IMG/VR virus record: IMGVR_UViG_3300048907_000336
Direction: 5' to 3' (one strand)
Length of the DNA stretch: 64,000 nucleotides
Source: a virus
In this document: piece after piece, positions 2,578 through 55,877 of the stretch
Numbering within the stretch: the stretch's first letter is position 1
How the letters are laid out: every line of letters begins with the position of its first letter
Position numbers and translations under genes: made by a program
The notes under the pieces: model-generated
The model's database searches: none
What the model saw: only the letters and a program-made list of their open reading frames with translations
What the model was told of the DNA's origin: nothing

Positions 2578-2832
2578 ATGGAATTTAGCGACGACCCGCA
2601 TCCCAATTCGCCGGTCGAATGGGCGGACAACCGTGTTTCGAACTTCCTGGCCTGGGCGTCCAAGCATGTCACTCCGCTCTGGTGCCAGAGTGAAGAACAT
2701 TGGACCGCTAAACTAACCCAATATCTGTTCACCGACTGCCCGTGCTGCCTGCTGTTTCGCGGCATCATTCTGGGCACACTCGTTACGGGTATCCCACTCA
2801 TCGCATGCCTCGTCGTACTAATGTTGCGGTAG
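2578..2832 (+). CDS. small Cys-containing membrane protein
   Basis: DCPCC followed by a hydrophobic C-terminal helix; tightly packed between neighbours. Confidence 0.5.
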   Translation: MEFSDDPHPNSPVEWADNRVSNFLAWASKHVTPLWCQSEEHWTAKLTQYLFTDCPCCLLFRGIILGTLVTGIPLIACLVVLMLR

Positions 2833-2834
2833 AG

Positions 2835-4079
2835 ATGCCGCCGGAAGCGCCGTCGCGCGGTGTGATCGAGGCCAATATGGGCGTGCGTTTACGCGATACG
2901 CTGTTCGCCAGAGCCCGCCACAAGGCGCTGTACGGTGGGCGCGGCAGCGGCAAGAGCTGGGCGGTGGCAACTTATTTGGCGACGGTCGCCAGTCAGAGCC
3001 GTAAGCGCGTGGTCTGTGCCCGCCAGTATCAGAACTCGATACGCGATAGCTCCAAAGAGCTGATCGAGAAGCGCATCAACGACATGTCGCTCAACGATCA
3101 ATTTTCGGTCACCGACCGATACATTTTTCACAACACCAACAAAAGCCAGTTCCTGTTCATGGGCTTGGAGCGCAATGTCGAAAGCATTCGCTCGCTCGAA
3201 GGCGCAGACATCGTCTGGATCGAGGAAGCGCGAACCATCAGCGCCAAGTCGATGGAAGTGCTGCTGCCCACCATTCGCCAAGCCGGGTCGCAACTGATCT
3301 GGACCTGGAACCCGGTGGACCCGGAAGACCCGGTTGATGCTTATTTTCGCAACGGCGCGCCGCCGCCTAACAGCATCGTCACCAAAGTCGATTACACCGA
3401 CAACCCGTATTTTTTGAAGACTGAAATGCCGAACGAGATGCAGTTGCTCAAGAAGGGCAACCCGGCGCGGTATCGGCACGTCTGGCTGGGCGAGTACGAC
3501 CTCCGGCACGAGAGCAAGGTTTTTCCCAACACCAAGATTGGCCGCCTGGACGTGCCGAAGAACTGCGCGCCGCTCTATGGCATGGACTTCGGCTTCGCCA
3601 AAGATCCCAGTGCTGTGGTCAAGCTCTACGTGATCGAGGCCACCCGGCAGATTTACATCTGCGGCGAGGCTGTCGGCGCGGTCTCGCTGGAGCGGCTTCC
3701 CAGTTTGGTGCGCAGCGTTATTCACTCCGACGACAATCTGGTGCGCTGCGACAGCTCGCGGCCGGAGGCGATTGAGATGCTGCAGGGGCGCGGCATCAAT
3801 GCGCAGAAGGCGCGCAAAGGGCCGGGCTCGCTCAAGAGCGGGATCTTGTTCCTGCAGGGCTACGACATCTGGATCGACCCGGCCTGCGAGCACATGCGCG
3901 AAGAGGCGCGGCTGTATTCGTGGATGACCGACCGGCTCAGCGGCAAGATCCTGAACACGCCGGTCGATGCCAACAATCACTTATGGGACGCGGTGCGTTA
4001 CGCCGTCGAAGACAACGTCACGCAGCCGTCGGCCGACGACGACATCGGTTCTGGGGTGCTGAAACTCAAACTGTGGTGA
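2835..4079 (+). CDS. terL: terminase large subunit (PBSX-like)
   Basis: Walker A YGGRGSGKS, CARQYQNSIRDS, Walker B WIEEA, nuclease GMDFG and NHLWDAVRYA. Confidence 0.95.
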   Translation: MPPEAPSRGVIEANMGVRLRDTLFARARHKALYGGRGSGKSWAVATYLATVASQSRKRVVCARQYQNSIRDSSKELIEKRINDMSLNDQFSVTDRYIFHNTNKSQFLFMGLERNVESIRSLEGADIVWIEEARTISAKSMEVLLPTIRQAGSQLIWTWNPVDPEDPVDAYFRNGAPPPNSIVTKVDYTDNPYFLKTEMPNEMQLLKKGNPARYRHVWLGEYDLRHESKVFPNTKIGRLDVPKNCAPLYGMDFGFAKDPSAVVKLYVIEATRQIYICGEAVGAVSLERLPSLVRSVIHSDDNLVRCDSSRPEAIEMLQGRGINAQKARKGPGSLKSGILFLQGYDIWIDPACEHMREEARLYSWMTDRLSGKILNTPVDANNHLWDAVRYAVEDNVTQPSADDDIGSGVLKLKLW

Positions 4080-5413: not shown

Positions 5414-6817
5414 ATGAACCTGCAGCAGACCGTGCGCGACTGGATAATCAAACGGCGGCCAGATCGTTCCGTCAAGGACGAGCCGCTGAGCCCGATCTAT
5501 CACATCTCGGGCTATCCCGTTCGCTTCCTGTCGCACGCCGCCATTGCCACGGCCGACATTTCGCAGCGAACCAACCCGCAGCTTTACCGCGTCACCAATT
5601 TTGTTGCGTCGGCGGTGCAGTCGGTGCCGTGGTATTGCGAGCCCGACCCCGATGTCGTCGCCAACGAGCGCGCCGGGGCGACGGTCTGCAAGAACATTAA
5701 CAGCCTTCTGTGTTCGCCAAATGACACCTTCACCGCGCATTCGCTGCGGTACTGGATCGCGCTCAATTTAATGCTGTATGCCCGCGCCCACTTCAAGGTC
5801 GGCGTCGGCTCCGGCGGCCAGCCCAATGGGATCTACCCGCTGGCGGCGCAGTATACCAAGGGGATATTGAACAACCGTGGAACGGTCGATGCCTATGAAT
5901 ACGGTGAAGGTGCAAACAAATCCACTCTGCCGACAAGGCGCAATGCATCTAAGCTCCAGGCTTATGCTGCTGAAATTTCTTTCCCAACCCTTACCGGCCT
6001 CGTCGAATACAATAAAGCACCGGCTGCTATCGAGTGCATCGCGATTCCATTGGCCATCATCCAGGCCTTGATGCAGCGGGCGCTCGACACCGCCAATGGC
6101 CATCCCAATGTCCGCTATGTGATCGCGTCGGAGAAGACCATCACCAAGGCGCAACGCGATGCGCTGACCGAGTATCTGCAGGACAGTGGACCGGCCGAGG
6201 AGAACAGCGGCAACATCCTGTTTCTCTACAACACCGACATTAAGGTCCACACCCTCGACAACGATCTCTCCGACATCCACACCAAGCTCCCGCTTGATGA
6301 CATGACCCGCCAAGTAGCGGGAGTGTTCGGGGTACCTATCGCGCTGCTCGGTCTAGGGTCTGCCGACGCTGCGAAGTACGCGAACAACTACCAAGAGTCC
6401 CGCCTCGCGTTCTGGCAGGACACAGTCATGCCGTCGTACTTGGCTCCCATCAGCGCCGGTATGACTGCCGCCATCTGCCCGCCCGGCTGTCATATCTGTT
6501 TCGACTACGACGCCATCCCGGCGATGTGGACGGGACGGGCCAAGCTCGGCGAAAGCCTCTCCTTGGTGACGTTTCTCACCACCAACGAGAAGCGCGACAT
6601 CCTGGGCTTCCCGCCCGACGACAGCTTGCCCAAGCTGATCGCCGGTGCGCGCTCGTCGGTGACGCCGATGGCCCCGGCTCCCGACGGCACCGACACCACC
6701 AAGCCATCGGCGGAAGAAGTTGGGGCAACCCCGGGCGACAAGGTCGAGCCCGGCGGCGAAGCCATGCCGATGCAGCAGCAGATCCCGCCCAACGTCGTTC
6801 AGTTTCACGCTTCTTAG
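5414..6817 (+). CDS. portal protein (HK97-like)
   Basis: Position terL-portal-protease; QVAGVFGVPIALLG, NYQESRLAFWQDTVMP, LTTNEKRDILGFPP. Confidence 0.88.
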   Translation: MNLQQTVRDWIIKRRPDRSVKDEPLSPIYHISGYPVRFLSHAAIATADISQRTNPQLYRVTNFVASAVQSVPWYCEPDPDVVANERAGATVCKNINSLLCSPNDTFTAHSLRYWIALNLMLYARAHFKVGVGSGGQPNGIYPLAAQYTKGILNNRGTVDAYEYGEGANKSTLPTRRNASKLQAYAAEISFPTLTGLVEYNKAPAAIECIAIPLAIIQALMQRALDTANGHPNVRYVIASEKTITKAQRDALTEYLQDSGPAEENSGNILFLYNTDIKVHTLDNDLSDIHTKLPLDDMTRQVAGVFGVPIALLGLGSADAAKYANNYQESRLAFWQDTVMPSYLAPISAGMTAAICPPGCHICFDYDAIPAMWTGRAKLGESLSLVTFLTTNEKRDILGFPPDDSLPKLIAGARSSVTPMAPAPDGTDTTKPSAEEVGATPGDKVEPGGEAMPMQQQIPPNVVQFHAS

Positions 6818-52289: not shown

Positions 52290-52419
52290 TGATAATCTGA
52301 TTGGCTACCATCTCCAACACGTCGGCGACCGCACGATACCGGCTTTCTCCCATATCGCTAGCGTTCATGCGCAGCGCCACCTTGCGAATCGATTCGGCGA
52401 TATTCTCAGCTTCGGTCAC
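52222..52419 (-). CDS. hypothetical protein
   Basis: GGAGG RBS; ATGA coupling. Confidence 0.4.
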   Translation of the reverse strand: MTEAENIAESIRKVALRMNASDMGESRYRAVADVLEMVANQIINDEVERREAGRGVQVQEETPFS

Positions 52420-52952
52420 AGTTTCAATGTCCTCCAGTAGTGCATGCGATTCATTTGTTGCAGCGCCACGGCATCGCAGTGCGGCAGCATCGGTCGCGGC
52501 GGCATCGGCCCGCGCACCGGCCGCATCGCCGGTGTAGGCGTGCGCTCGACGACAGGCAGAGGTGATTGCACTGATGGCAATGATGGCACTGCCAGGGTCT
52601 CAGGCACCGGCTTGGGCTTCCGCTGACGCGGCGTTCTTACTTTCTTCCATTCAGGAACATAAAACCTGGGATTCTCAGGATAGTATTTCTCGACATCGAA
52701 CGGCGCGATGCCTGCCAGCTTTCTCCGGCGACGAGGATGATGCAACCTGCGAATCGCTTTGCCTTCGATCTGGCGGATGCGCTCGCGGCCAACACCATAC
52801 ATCTTGCCAATCTCATCAAATGAATGTGCTGGACAGGTCAGCCCGTAATGCAGCGCCAATACCCGATGCTCGCGCGCCGGAAGCATGCGGCACAGCCAGA
52901 TGCTTAGTTTCTCTCGCCGTTCTTTTTCTTGATAGGCAAGCTCCGGGTCCAC
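52416..52952 (-). CDS. stand-alone sigma70 region 4 protein
   Basis: LPAREHRVLALHYGL..SFDEIGKMYGVGRERIRQIEGKAIRRLHHP. Confidence 0.8.
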   Translation of the reverse strand: MDPELAYQEKERREKLSIWLCRMLPAREHRVLALHYGLTCPAHSFDEIGKMYGVGRERIRQIEGKAIRRLHHPRRRRKLAGIAPFDVEKYYPENPRFYVPEWKKVRTPRQRKPKPVPETLAVPSLPSVQSPLPVVERTPTPAMRPVRGPMPPRPMLPHCDAVALQQMNRMHYWRTLKL

Positions 52953-52955
52953 CGC

Positions 52956-55877
52956 TCAGTCCTTTTTGTAGCGGTCGCCCTGCCACGCCTTGGCCGCGAT
53001 GGGAAAACCTTTGGCCCAATGCGGCACCATCTCCATGATGGTCCTGAACTCCTTGGCACTGCGTGTAGCCGGTGCCTCGGCGACCACCTCGTCGTGCACG
53101 GTCAACACCACCGGATATCCGGCGGCATTCACCCGCAGCATCGCTTCGGCCATGACGTCGCGCGCCAGCCCCTGCACAGAATTTTCAACGAGCAAGCCGC
53201 CATATGCCGAGATCCGGCCCCAATGCGACGAGTGGGTTTCCTCCTTGATCACGCGCTTGGCGTTGCTGGGGTTGATCGTGGTCTTGTAGGTTAGCATTGG
53301 TTTCTTCTCGCCCCACGGCGTCGGCAACTGCATCACTTTGGCATAAGGGTAGCAGAGGCAGCGGCCGCTCGGCAGTTGCATGTACAGGAACGGCCCGCGC
53401 ATGCGGTAGCGAATGCGGCCGCAGCTGGTGATGCGGCCGGGCGACTGCACCGCACCGATGGCGGCCCATTCCATGGCAGGCCAGAACTCCACCGTGCGCG
53501 GGTGCGCCGAACGCCATGCTATTTTCAGTTCGTCGGCGCGCTCGTTGCTCACCTTAACGCCGTAACCGGCGGCCATGGTTTGGAAGGCACCGATGCCGCC
53601 CTGATAGCCGCAGTTATGCACAAGCAAAGGCCCCAGGCTCGTAACAATCATGAACCGATTGCGCGGCCCCGCATCGGCAATGTCGAAGACAGGCTTCAAG
53701 TTCGGTGATGCGGTCTTGCAATTGTCGAACTTTTCTACGGGTGTCTGTGTTGCTTTGGTGGGTAACGAAACGAAGGTTGCCCGGTTCGTAATTGCCGTCG
53801 GTGTTAACCCGATCCAGTTCAAGCCTCGGTTTATTCCAACCCGGCAACTTGGCAATATACGCCAGAAAGGCGCGACGATCTTTGCGCCAAGCTTCACAAA
53901 CGCTGATGCCGCGACCGCCGTAACTGTGGTAACCGGCATCATTAGGGTTGCCGCACCGATTAATGGCTGCGGAGATCCGATTGAGTAATCGACGCCGGTG
54001 CTTGGCGTCGGGAACAATGTCAGCATAGCCGTGATAATGTTTGCGCCAGTGACCGGCTTTCTTTTTCGCGCACACATTACATGCAGTCGATCTGCCTTTG
54101 TGCAGGTTATAGAGGTGAACCGGGTGAGGAGCCGCGCCGCAATCACACTGAACGATGACACGCCACAAGCCGCCAGCAGACCCGTACGTGTAGTTGACCA
54201 CGGTAAGCTGACCAAACCTGTCGCCAAGCTTTGGGACAGGATGTTTGCGTCGGAAACGAGTTGCTGCGCCTGCGTCCACGTTTCTTTGGTTAAAATTAAA
54301 TGATCCCGCGTTAGCTCGGTGTCGCCCACACATACAACCGGGCGCACACCTTTTGCCACCAAACCGTTGTGAGTTACCCATTCAACACCATCCCACAATC
54401 TATCAGTTAAAGCTACATCGACGATGCGCTTAATTCCATTATTAGTTAATACTCGCGTATCAGCACCAAGACAAGCCAATTCCATCACCTTGCCGATCTG
54501 GCGCATGTGATCGTCGATCTTATCGAGCGGCACGTGAAACGCGCGTGAATAGGCAAGCTTGTAGATGTCAGGGCCGGTGCCTGCATCGTAGGCTTCGAAC
54601 GCCATCACTTTCCAATTCTCATTGACCAGCCACGCTAGCCCACGGCCTTCAATGTTAGAAAAGTCAGCAGCAAACAAATGATTGCCGGGCGCAGCGATGA
54701 TCATCCCTCTGATGATGTCGCTGATGACGTTGATCGGGCCGTCGAATATCTCGATGCCCAGCATCTGCTTACGGCGCACCAGATCGATCAGCACGTCTTG
54801 ATTCTTATTCACCGGCCGCTTGATGTTTTGCGGTTGGAAACGACGCCCAGCCCAGCGGCCGGTGGTGGCAGCATGATAGGCAAGCAAACCACGCACGCGG
54901 CCATCGGCCGATGCGTCGGTCAGCAGCGCCTGGATTTTCTTGACGCTGACTTTGGACGCCTCCTGCCGGATCTCCAGCACCCGTCGGACACTGGGCGGCA
55001 GGTCGTCGCGCGCCAGGAGCTTGCCCAGCTCCTCCTTGGCGATGGAGCTTAGCTCCTCGTCGTCTTCGTCCTTAAGCCCGTGGCGTTTGCAGTAGTTGAT
55101 GATCTGCGCCACGCTCGACGTGGTCAGCACCTCGCTGTCGGAAGCTTCGCGAATGTCCTTGTTGAGCTGCTTGAGCGCCACCTCGATCATGTCGCGCGCG
55201 ATCTCGCACAACTCGCGGTCCACCAGCAGGCCCCGGTCGTTGATCTCCTGATCGAGCAGCCAGATCTTGTGCTCCTGGGCGGTGAGATGGAACAGCCGGT
55301 TGTGCAGGGCGCGCTCGACCTCGACGTCGCGAATGCAGTACTCGATCAGCCGTTGCAGCCGGGCCGGGTCGTCGTCCCACCATACGGGGTTACCGAATAG
55401 ATCGATGCGCCGTGGGCGGCTCATGGTGAGCATTAGGCGATGGCCTTCGGCGTCCTTGCTCAGAGGAAGGCCGACCGACGAAGCCGCATCAGCGAGGCTC
55501 CCTGGCAAAGCCTGGGCATAGGCACGGGCCATGGTGCATCCCCAGGCCTGGGGCCGGGGCACCGACCAGCCGTACTTGGGGCCAAGCTTGTGCTGCCACA
55601 TCAGCCGTTCGAACTGGGTATTGTGAGACAGCATGTTGCCGCCGTTCTCGATGTGCTCACACAGCACCCAGGGCTTGCGCTGCCCCGGCACCCAGGTCTG
55701 CACCGGGCCGTCGTCGATGGCGTAGCAGACGCACCAGATGTCGGTCTGGGGGTGAGCGGCGTAGACGTAGATGCCGTGCTTGCGCAGCTCGACCGTGGCA
55801 CGCGATTCGATATCGACGAAGGCGTTGCGGGTCTTGGAGCCGACCAGCCGCAGCTTGGTTTTAAGTTCTTGCTTCAT
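52956..55877 (-). CDS. family A DNA polymerase containing an intein
   Basis: Exo DIES/HNTQFER; TGRWAG; motif A ADFSNIE; motif B RQIGKVMELA|CGYQGG; motif C TVHDE. Confidence 0.95.
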   Translation of the reverse strand: MKQELKTKLRLVGSKTRNAFVDIESRATVELRKHGIYVYAAHPQTDIWCVCYAIDDGPVQTWVPGQRKPWVLCEHIENGGNMLSHNTQFERLMWQHKLGPKYGWSVPRPQAWGCTMARAYAQALPGSLADAASSVGLPLSKDAEGHRLMLTMSRPRRIDLFGNPVWWDDDPARLQRLIEYCIRDVEVERALHNRLFHLTAQEHKIWLLDQEINDRGLLVDRELCEIARDMIEVALKQLNKDIREASDSEVLTTSSVAQIINYCKRHGLKDEDDEELSSIAKEELGKLLARDDLPPSVRRVLEIRQEASKVSVKKIQALLTDASADGRVRGLLAYHAATTGRWAGRRFQPQNIKRPVNKNQDVLIDLVRRKQMLGIEIFDGPINVISDIIRGMIIAAPGNHLFAADFSNIEGRGLAWLVNENWKVMAFEAYDAGTGPDIYKLAYSRAFHVPLDKIDDHMRQIGKVMELACLGADTRVLTNNGIKRIVDVALTDRLWDGVEWVTHNGLVAKGVRPVVCVGDTELTRDHLILTKETWTQAQQLVSDANILSQSLATGLVSLPWSTTRTGLLAACGVSSFSVIAARLLTRFTSITCTKADRLHVMCARKRKPVTGANIITAMLTLFPTPSTGVDYSIGSPQPLIGAATLMMPVTTVTAVAASAFVKLGAKIVAPFWRILPSCRVGINRGLNWIGLTPTAITNRATFVSLPTKATQTPVEKFDNCKTASPNLKPVFDIADAGPRNRFMIVTSLGPLLVHNCGYQGGIGAFQTMAAGYGVKVSNERADELKIAWRSAHPRTVEFWPAMEWAAIGAVQSPGRITSCGRIRYRMRGPFLYMQLPSGRCLCYPYAKVMQLPTPWGEKKPMLTYKTTINPSNAKRVIKEETHSSHWGRISAYGGLLVENSVQGLARDVMAEAMLRVNAAGYPVVLTVHDEVVAEAPATRSAKEFRTIMEMVPHWAKGFPIAAKAWQGDRYKKD
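53613..54473 (-). mobile_element. intein (287 aa) in polymerase motif B
   Basis: Starts CLGADTRVLT; block B TRDH; block F VFDI; ends LVHN followed by Cys+1; removing it restores KVMELA-CGYQGG. Confidence 0.92.
53614..54381 (-). CDS. HNH homing endonuclease nested out-of-frame inside the intein
   Basis: GDRFGQLTVV..VQCDCG, RCGNP..YGGRGISVC, LELDRVNTDGNYEPGNLRF; alternative start GTG 54279. Confidence 0.85.
   Translation of the reverse strand: MGNSQRFGGKRCAPGCMCGRHRANAGSFNFNQRNVDAGAATRFRRKHPVPKLGDRFGQLTVVNYTYGSAGGLWRVIVQCDCGAAPHPVHLYNLHKGRSTACNVCAKKKAGHWRKHYHGYADIVPDAKHRRRLLNRISAAINRCGNPNDAGYHSYGGRGISVCEAWRKDRRAFLAYIAKLPGWNKPRLELDRVNTDGNYEPGNLRFVTHQSNTDTRRKVRQLQDRITELEACLRHCRCGAAQSVHDCYEPGAFACA

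Follow-up and report, generated by a model that had tools for sequence, protein, structure and literature searches.

A putative homing endonuclease gene nested out of frame within the intein of a phage family-A DNA polymerase gene

The polymerase gene carries a class-1 intein in motif B

We analysed a 64,000-nucleotide stretch of viral DNA (IMG/VR record IMGVR_UViG_3300048907_000336; this whole stretch is called the window below), in which the gene for a family-A DNA polymerase (polA) contains an intein whose coding sequence overlaps, on the same strand, a second long open reading frame (ORF), probably a homing endonuclease gene. The polymerase gene, located at 52956..55877 on the minus strand, encodes a precursor of 973 aa with one intein in motif B (Pfam DNA_pol_A, E 8.5e-20). 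Alignment of the precursor with the intein-less polymerases of Ralstonia phage C22 and of a Manatee Spring contig revealed an insertion of 287 aa in this motif: the window reads RQIGKVMELA / CLGADTRV...LLVHN / CGYQGG (slashes mark the borders of the insertion), as opposed to RQIGKVAVLA-LGYGGG in the insertion-free sequences, the intein-less Ralstonia-phage polymerases having KVAVLA-LGYGGG at the insertion site. According to the alignment to intein-less phage polymerases, the N-extein (54474..55877, minus strand, 468 aa) ends with ...RQIGKVMELA, and the C-extein (52956..53612, minus strand) begins with Cys+1, followed by GYQGGIGAFQ.

The inserted segment (53613..54473, minus strand, 861 nt) bears the intein motifs in the proper order, that is Cys1 (TGT), ELTRDH (block B), VFDIADAG (block F), ...LLVHN and Cys+1 (TGC). 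All 25 homologues in an alignment share C1, T55 and H58 (block B), D264 (block F), H286 and N287. At position +1 the window has Cys, and two other loci (L004 and L017) have Ser. A profile of this intein family matched the RecA (E 2e-4) and DnaX mini-inteins in the PDB, and the Foldseek matches of the AlphaFold model of the intein were all mini-inteins (DnaX, gp41-1, DnaB, DnaE; probability 1.0). The model is confident (pLDDT 95-97) over the N-terminal Hint lobe with blocks A and B (aa 1-93, 54195..54473, minus strand) and over the C-terminal Hint lobe with blocks F and G (aa 256-287, 53613..53708, minus strand; pLDDT 96-97), which is also constrained in the intein frame. The linker between them (aa 94-255, 53709..54194, minus strand) is stop-free, shows no protein-level constraint and has a pLDDT of 30-38, thus its 162 aa are predicted to be disordered; it is the +1 reading of the nested gene described below.

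The initial annotation of this DNA, made from the sequence alone, had described about 200 aa of featureless sequence here, and while the featureless character is borne out, the stretch comprises 162 aa. The coordinates given there for polA, the intein and the nested ORF all hold on the minus strand, and an intein with Cys1, TRDH, VFDI, His-Asn and Cys+1 is confirmed by the invariant residues, the Hint fold and the mini-intein matches. Pfam and NCBIfam were silent on both frames of the intein region, and an Rfam search of the insert gave no intron match at E up to 1. The host gene is undivided, forming one ORF of 973 aa, which distinguishes it from a split intein or a fractured gene. We thus conclude that, by its residues, predicted Hint fold and site, the insertion is a class-1 intein, which would be expected to splice.

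A second ORF is nested in the intein

The nested ORF (53614..54381, minus strand, 255 aa) lies in frame +2 (equivalent to -1) of the intein and begins at intein nt 92; the two frames stay open together for 768 nt. It encodes a putative HNH-like (phrog_374) homing endonuclease: residues 12-218 match the PHROG family phrog_374, annotated as 'HNH endonuclease', with E 6e-36. Using tblastn, homologues of the nested ORF were found in 869 phage records, in which the best matches underlie an annotated DNA polymerase, and in a representative protein collection 84,231 cluster representatives match the nested protein at E <= 1e-3. The TAA stop of the nested ORF (53614..53616, minus strand) overlaps the terminal His-Asn codons of the intein (CAT AAC). 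This had been pointed out in the initial annotation and is true of the window, but it is not conserved: in the homologues the stop falls 1-67 nt before the end of the intein, so we rejected the idea of the TAA within CATAAC as a conserved design feature.

The two-frame layout is conserved and under frame-specific selection

We collected 33 loci with a homologous intein, comprising the window, seven GenBank phages (SO-1, EP23, fEg-Eco19, FSL SP-101, Pseudomonas MR14, Vibrio 97.13 and EBPR siphovirus 2) and 25 IMG/VR contigs. The layout is common to all of these divergent loci, which include Jerseyvirus, Kagunavirus, Dhillonvirus, Vibrio and Pseudomonas phages, at protein identities of 36-61%; in 33/33 the nested homologue occupies frame +2, with both frames uninterrupted. 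Among the 27 closest IMG/VR matches, 26 have no intein-frame stops across the nested gene and 5-31 stops in the third frame. In most of the more distant, free-standing homologues (L039-L090) the equivalent frame is interrupted by 2-12 stops.

The number of intein-frame stops to be expected was calculated exactly, keeping the nested protein sequence fixed and drawing synonymous codons from the exteins of the same locus. Under this model 2.6-10 stops are expected per locus and none is observed in any of the 33 (median P(0) = 9e-4). For the window about 5 are expected and 0 present (P(0) = 5e-4), which puts the two open frames of about 770 nt, already noticed in the initial annotation, beyond chance. 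The third frame contains 13 stops in the window and, across loci, about the expected number. Intein-frame stops are thus selected against.

The variability of codon positions switches along the intein. At its ends (aa 1-58 and 262-287), codon position 3 is the most variable (0.58-0.64 vs 0.17-0.34 for position 2), while over aa 94-256 the most variable is codon position 2, corresponding to position 3 in the nested frame (0.59-0.71), and the intein-frame amino-acid divergence there reaches 0.65-0.86. The switch points coincide with the order/disorder boundaries of the AlphaFold model, which were obtained independently. In six closely related, gap-free inteins of enterobacterial phages we counted substitutions that are silent in one frame only. 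In the central region 572 are silent solely in the nested frame and 171 solely in the intein frame; the corresponding numbers are 8 and 108 in the N-terminal lobe, and 0 and 86 in the C-terminal lobe. The mutational opportunity of the two silent classes is approximately equal (about 21% and 22% of possible changes). Purifying selection is thus frame-specific: the Hint ends are constrained in the intein frame, and aa 94-256 only in the nested frame. This is the pattern that the initial annotation had predicted for a functional nested gene, and its further expectation, that homologues would keep the nested frame free of stops, also agrees with the 33 loci, where neither frame is interrupted.

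Two loci show disturbed frames. In L029 (1900-3300), four indels relative to a 91.5%-identical relative break both frames, and the polymerase of Salmonella phage SE2 (L006) is annotated as two coding sequences, the frame changing a short way past the intein. Each of these cases may reflect a sequencing error or genuine decay.

The nested protein is HNH-like and possibly PacI-like

An AlphaFold model of the nested protein was built from an alignment of 70 sequences, with the rows from GenBank-record loci left out. The mean pLDDT is 85 and exceeds 90 over residues 50-220; only the segments overlapping the Hint lobes, residues 1-35 and 240-255, have low confidence. Two modules can be recognised. 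Residues 47-106 (54064..54243, minus strand) are predicted to form a small beta-barrel with a CxC...CxxC zinc ribbon, presumably a DNA-binding module, whose cysteines C79, C81, C101 and C104 are invariant; it resembles Tudor/SH3/KOW-like folds (Z 4-5) and the N-domain of Hpy99I (Z 4.0). In a metagenomic relative of 604 aa (P0123), five N-terminal modules of this kind (GxRFGxxxVVGY...CxCG...CxxC) stand in tandem before a single C-terminal module, which suggests that the zinc-ribbon module is a repeatable unit of DNA recognition.

Residues 113-216 (53734..54045, minus strand) constitute a putative PacI-like beta-beta-alpha-metal nuclease module. In the model, a strand-strand-helix arrangement is found at residues 187-191, 203-207 and 208-214, and D190, R191, Y198, P200, N202, F205 and N211 are invariant. 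The loop that connects the two strands contains Y198, and the loop and helix residues N202 and N211 may serve as metal ligands. No His is invariant anywhere in the protein among the 70 sequences. Among 48,161 PDB chains, PacI (3m7k / 3ldy) was ranked first, matching residues 113-216, and it was again first on a second comparison (rmsd 3.8 A over 85 residues). PacI is a His-Me nuclease without the catalytic His, for which a loop Tyr is used instead (PMC5714182).

The nested protein had been called a complete HNH endonuclease in the initial annotation. The ORF is indeed complete and matches phrog_374, but the canonical catalytic His is replaced by Arg and no Pfam HNH model recognises the protein. 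NCBIfam has no match to it, phmmer and profile searches against PDB sequences returned nothing meaningful, and neither did Foldseek find anything significant among the Swiss-Prot models. The matches obtained are to PHROG families annotated as HNH and to AlphaFold DB clusters (E 1e-13 to 1e-6) that are auto-named HNH endonuclease or AP2-domain protein. A canonical HNH identity is therefore only partly supported, and we describe the nested protein as HNH-like, possibly PacI-like, and as a presumed nuclease.

Internal initiation is the likelier route of expression

The likely start codon of the nested ORF is the ATG at 54379..54381 (minus strand; intein nt offset 92), which spans the Glu-Trp codons as GA-A/TG-G. 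A sequence resembling a Shine-Dalgarno (SD) element, GGGATGGTG (54386..54394, minus strand), lies 5-13 nt upstream of it and is built from the Hint codons W-D-G-V. Directly upstream of the ATG the nested frame has a TGA stop in the window. An NTG codon occurs at intein nt 92 in 31/33 loci (ATG in 23, GTG in 6 and TTG in 2) and derives from the Glu/Lys-Trp codons of the Hint motif LWDGxEW; one sub-clade has an ATG at nt 98 behind GGGGAGGA. For the window, the predicted duplex with the anti-SD sequence upstream of the nested ATG has an energy of -10.2 kcal/mol, which falls in the 1st percentile of the background; values of -8 kcal/mol or lower are reached in 21/33 loci as compared with 3.2% of out-of-frame NTGs in the exteins. 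The Gly codon of W-D-G is GGT or GGG in 23/33 loci vs 13.6 expected. Since the loci are not independent, the enrichment of SD-like sequences and of these Gly codons is only suggestive.

Other routes of expression were considered as well. Slippery heptamers of the X_XXY_YYZ type are absent from the first 260 nt of the intein in the window and in 32/33 loci, the remaining locus having one weak, unconserved heptamer. No sigma-70 promoter-like site was found inside the gene, thus an internal sigma-70 promoter for the nested ORF was rejected. Because of the SD-like element, the lack of a conserved slippery heptamer and the lack of an internal promoter, internal initiation on the polA mRNA is the best reading, and initiation at ATG 54381 appears likelier than frameshifting. 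The initial annotation had offered both routes; internal initiation is favoured, frameshifting is unsupported.

The SD-like element and the ATG belong to a motif that is also present in locus L083, where the nested gene is in another frame, so it would be wrong to ascribe their conservation solely to the nested gene. The nested gene probably exploited a pre-existing Hint sequence for both.

Relatives of the intein and of the nested gene

Free-standing relatives of the nested protein begin at approximately residue 40-50 of the nested ORF. One of them is a paralogue in the same phage (4458..5111, minus strand; phrog_374, E 2e-60; 28% identical), which aligns from nested residue 47 and likewise has Arg, not His, in the 'DR' motif. 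In antisense orientation, it is flanked by the genes for the large terminase subunit (2742-4079) and the portal protein (5414-6817), a typical position for a free-standing homing endonuclease. A Pfam scan of the 10 longest of 150 listed relatives revealed no in-frame fusion with a Hint domain, and on these grounds an in-frame ancestor of nuclease and intein was rejected.

A related PolA intein at the same motif-B site (L083, 2161-2900; GKVAELA / CIAEGQ...LVHN / CGYGGG) carries a nuclease homologue that is 35% identical to that of the window, lies in frame +1 rather than +2 and begins after block B. This may be an independent, second solution to the choice of frame, or the outcome of a replacement. 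The same intein with its nested gene was also found in an SNF2-family helicase (L035, 2256-3125) and at a different, more C-terminal site of PolA (L036, 2286-3149). The composite element has thus changed both its site and its host gene. Within motif B itself there are three insertion points, 1-4 codons apart: the +1 Cys precedes the Tyr/Phe of the G-Y/F motif by 2 residues in 17 loci, including the window, by 6 in 13 loci and by 5 in L011. The identities of the Hint domain and of the nested gene correlate between loci (r = 0.62), and both exceed the extein identity in 187-195 of 210 locus pairs.

Taken together, the free-standing relatives, the frame of L083, the new sites and the identity pattern favour a history in which a free-standing gene invaded a mini-intein and the composite then spread horizontally. 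The invasion had been proposed in the initial annotation, and it is supported by the free-standing relatives, their start at about residue 47, the L083 frame and the absence of in-frame Hint fusions from the 10 relatives scanned.

In a further locus (L093, 717-2319, P0174) an SNF2 N-extein (...LTGTPLPNRP) is fused in frame to a nuclease homologue, the N-terminal Hint lobe being deleted, and the C-terminal Hint lobe with the C-extein (...VIAHN / CYTLTRG...) runs on in the other frame. Such a derivative may be on the way to a fractured or dead host gene. In L038 the nuclease homologue is nested in an ORF that ends in sigma-70 region 4 (Pfam Sigma70_r4, E 5e-7). Downstream of polA in the window (52416-52952, minus strand) lies a gene for a 178-aa protein, the first ~80 residues of which match sigma-70 region 4 (phrog_351, E 1e-12).

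Intein-plus and intein-minus alleles coexist in metagenomes

At least 22 metagenome runs from root and soil contain the intein stretch of the window. Contigs of four runs align to it without any gap; in two of these a contig of 925 nt is identical to the window over the whole intein, and the two others yield contigs of 6.8-7.4 kb. In two runs (X1 and X2) a contig of 64 nt joins position 53609 to 54475 via CAGG (plus strand), so that the segment 53610..54474 is replaced by these 4 letters, with a net loss of 861 nt. On the coding strand the joint reads ATG GAA TTG GCC CTG GGC TAT (MELA-L-GYQGG), and the intein-less polA site thus reads ...ATGGAATTGGCCCTGGGCTATCAGGGC...; this allele has Leu, as intein-free polymerases do, at the position where the intein allele has Cys+1. 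The intein-less contig has a depth of 3.8 in X1 and 4.4 in X2. In these runs the intein branch reaches 8.1 and 8.5, respectively, and the downstream C-extein flank 14.1 and 11.5. Based on these joint contigs, we conclude that an intein-less allele of the same phage coexists with the intein allele.

Approximately one third of the best 120 metagenomic homologues of the nested protein are on contigs of ~900-970 nt, which is the intein length plus ~64, and this is presumably what assembly bubbles of intein-plus and intein-minus alleles would leave. Among 469 Jersey/Kaguna-type records related to the polA of FSL SP-101, the intein is spanned in 150. Phages CR01, fBC-Eco01 and NCTh5, at 82-91% nucleotide identity, are without precisely those ~900 nt. 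The paper on vB_EcoS-B2 compares this phage with EP23 and SO-1; its polymerase has 763 aa, that is 1062 minus 299.

In runs X4 and X6 the intein contigs are identical to the window over ~1.4 kb except for 7-9 substitutions confined to the 24 nt at 53578-53601. This patch is in the C-extein, 9-35 nt from the insertion site, and seven of the changes are at the third codon position. It looks like a patch of co-conversion or recombination, or like target-site variation.

Interpretation and alternative explanations

The most probable explanation of these results, in which we place good though not complete confidence, is that the phage polA gene harbours a composite selfish element, i.e., a mini-intein with a free-standing homing-endonuclease gene of the phrog_374 family inserted in the +2 frame. 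The 'HNH-like' gene, with its PacI-like active site, would have entered at the endonuclease-insertion site of the mini-intein, which corresponds to the Hint domain (intein aa 1-93 and 256-287). Translation of polA in frame 0 would read the nested gene as the stop-free, disordered linker of 162 aa, and the Hint domain would then splice out, leaving a polymerase of 686 aa with Cys in motif B. The same mRNA would also support internal initiation, for which ATG 54381, preceded by the SD-like GGGAUGGUG, is the most likely site. The separate product of 255 aa would consist of an unconstrained leader of ~45 aa, the zinc-ribbon DNA-binding domain and the beta-beta-alpha-metal module. It would cleave intein-less polA alleles (...MELA-L-GYQGG...) of co-infecting phages, and repair would copy the intein with its nested gene into the cleaved alleles (homing). 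The parts of this mechanism that we infer are splicing, the start codon, nuclease activity and homing.

Several observations weigh against this explanation. No Pfam HNH model matches the nested protein of the window or any of 70 relatives, and Foldseek of its model against the PDB gave nothing significant. At the position of the general-base His there is Arg191, invariant in 70 sequences, and the match to PacI is weak, with Z 5.3 only. The SD-like element and the ATG consist of the conserved Hint motif LWDGxEW, which is kept in L083 too, and in L031 and L036 the nested start must be further downstream; both the translation of the nested ORF and its start codon are deduced from the sequence. 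Finally, the contig data speak of the coexistence of alleles, not of the direction of conversion.

We also entertain, tentatively, a broader version in which the intein and the nested gene form a co-adapted unit and the nested family is a very large, uncurated group of His-less, Tyr-dependent homing endonucleases. The Hint codons LWDGxEW would then double as the ribosome-binding site and start codon of the nested gene, the nested gene would provide the linker of the intein, and ribosome traffic on polA would throttle synthesis of the endonuclease.

Among the explanations that depart from a composite homing element, the one that survives best, though we regard it as unlikely, is that the nested ORF encodes a conserved, expressed protein other than a nuclease (a DNA-binding, regulatory, polymerase-helper or intein-helper protein) and that the intein is not mobile through it. 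The missing catalytic His with its invariant Arg191, the silence of Pfam and the low Z-score would all fit such a protein, and His-less His-Me domains that solely bind DNA are known (groups 16 and 21; PMC5714182). However, Y198 in the inter-strand loop together with N202 and N211 mirrors the Tyr-dependent active site of PacI, family members occupy classic homing-endonuclease positions such as the terminase-portal slot in the same phage, intein-plus and intein-minus alleles coexist, and the element has been found in different host genes and at several sites.

Programmed -1 ribosomal frameshifting, by which the nuclease would be made as a fusion with the N-extein and the N-terminal Hint lobe and not as a free-standing protein, seems very unlikely to us. 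The nested frame is the -1 frame of polA and its ~45 unconstrained first residues could in principle be bypassed, but the window and 32/33 loci have no slippery heptamer, the nested-frame TGA stands immediately before the ATG in the window, the SD-like element precedes this ATG, and the free-standing relatives are made as independent proteins. Still less credible is a decaying relic of an invasion whose two open frames are an accident of GC-rich sequence. The GC content is 54-56% here and long spurious ORFs are common in the window, but both the 33 loci and the close relatives show purifying selection in the nested frame, the fold is predicted with confidence and the third frame has 13 stops. 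Moreover, the enterobacterial-phage loci, where more stops are expected, likewise keep both frames open, and nested-frame stops or frameshifts in homologues occur only in the error-ridden L029. Compensating assembly indels in a canonical in-frame intein, a danger named in the initial annotation, are excluded by gap-free contigs from four independent runs and by the layout shared among 33 loci, and a group I intron with an HNH ORF, as the insert is called in the SO-1 GenBank record, is hardly conceivable given the lack of an Rfam match, the open polymerase frame, the Hint fold and the full set of splicing residues.

Comparison with known systems

Out-of-frame endonucleases in inteins have been described before. 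In a cyanobacterial dnaX intein a LAGLIDADG homing endonuclease is encoded in a +2 ORF (Phillips, DeSimone and Gogarten, bioRxiv 10.64898/2026.09.14.751524); as cited in that work, this was first proposed by Gorbalenya in 1998. The DnaX intein resembles the polA one in several respects: where it overlaps the nested gene its own frame is disordered and free of constraint, purifying selection acts on the +2 ORF, SD-like motifs lie upstream, the arguments from selection and from coexistence are alike, and secondary invasion of a mini-intein was proposed. It differs in its nuclease (LAGLIDADG), host gene (bacterial dnaX) and location in a cellular genome, whereas the polA case is a phage one and concerns a zinc-ribbon, His-less HNH-like protein. 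In inteins of actinobacteriophages, frame 3 encodes an endonuclease VII-like protein (Gosselin, Arsenault and Gogarten, bioRxiv 10.1101/2025.01.02.630785). Here too the endonuclease is out of frame on the same strand, the in-frame reading has no recognisable structure and invasion by a free-standing gene was proposed, but the nuclease family, the hosts (Actinobacteria) and the host genes (the DNA-polymerase host being the Pol III alpha subunit) are different, and the polA nested ORF, unlike theirs, starts inside the N-terminal Hint lobe, at intein nt 92.

Two other arrangements are related. The ShiLan domain of an actinophage DNA methylase conceals an out-of-frame HNH gene (Arsenault et al. 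2025, PMC11855218); its host frame is also stop-free through the nuclease gene and its TAA stop lies within a terminal TAAC, but it has no detectable splicing domain, while the polA nested gene is flanked by a complete Hint domain. In fractured genes, a free-standing endonuclease gene is found between the halves of split inteins (Dassa et al. 2009, PMC2677866). As in polA, this gene occupies the endonuclease-insertion site of the intein and overlaps its coding sequence; however, the host gene is divided into two ORFs joined by trans splicing, whereas the polA frame is continuous. L093 resembles a step towards such an arrangement. PacI (3m7k / 3ldy), the best match of nested residues 113-216 among solved structures, is a beta-beta-alpha-metal nuclease that has no catalytic His and relies on a Tyr in the inter-strand loop; at Z 5.3 and 15% identity the likeness is weak and no claim of common ancestry.

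The closest known system is the PolA intein of Jerseyvirus, Kagunavirus and Dhillonvirus phages, which belongs to the same intein family, contains the same nested gene (36-61% identity to the window) and sits 4 codons upstream within motif B (GKA / C...HN / CELGLGY). A PolA intein is annotated in vB_SenS-Ent1, LP31 and SO-1, the Ent1 record naming 'splicing domains' only. In SO-1 (L001, NC_013600.1) the nested ORF (1964-2722) has been annotated for years in GenBank as gp39, 'HNH endonuclease'; the accompanying note of a 'type I self-splicing intron' appears to be a mis-annotation, because the polymerase frame is open, all intein motifs are present and Rfam recognises no intron. In the literature that we covered, which is incomplete, we found no paper describing the two-frame layout for the PolA intein family. 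The novelty suspected in the initial annotation is thus limited to this family: an out-of-frame endonuclease in an intein is an already described architecture, of which the PolA family is a further, well-supported case.

Significance

Out-of-frame intein endonucleases were described in 2025-26 as rare, and the present clade is notable for its size and experimental tractability. At least 168 sequenced phages carry the nested gene under strong selection. An endonuclease gene of this sort is missed when gene callers and intein catalogues register nothing but splicing domains, or a group I intron. The two relative frames (with L083), the deletion of the N-terminal lobe in L093, the several insertion points and the jump to an SNF2 gene offer snapshots of the mini-intein invasion route, and the overlap of ~770 nt is a clean natural example where selection on one frame acts only to keep it free of stops. 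The PolA clade is large and old, and since it includes easily handled lytic phages of E. coli and Salmonella, splicing, initiation, cleavage and homing are all directly testable in it.

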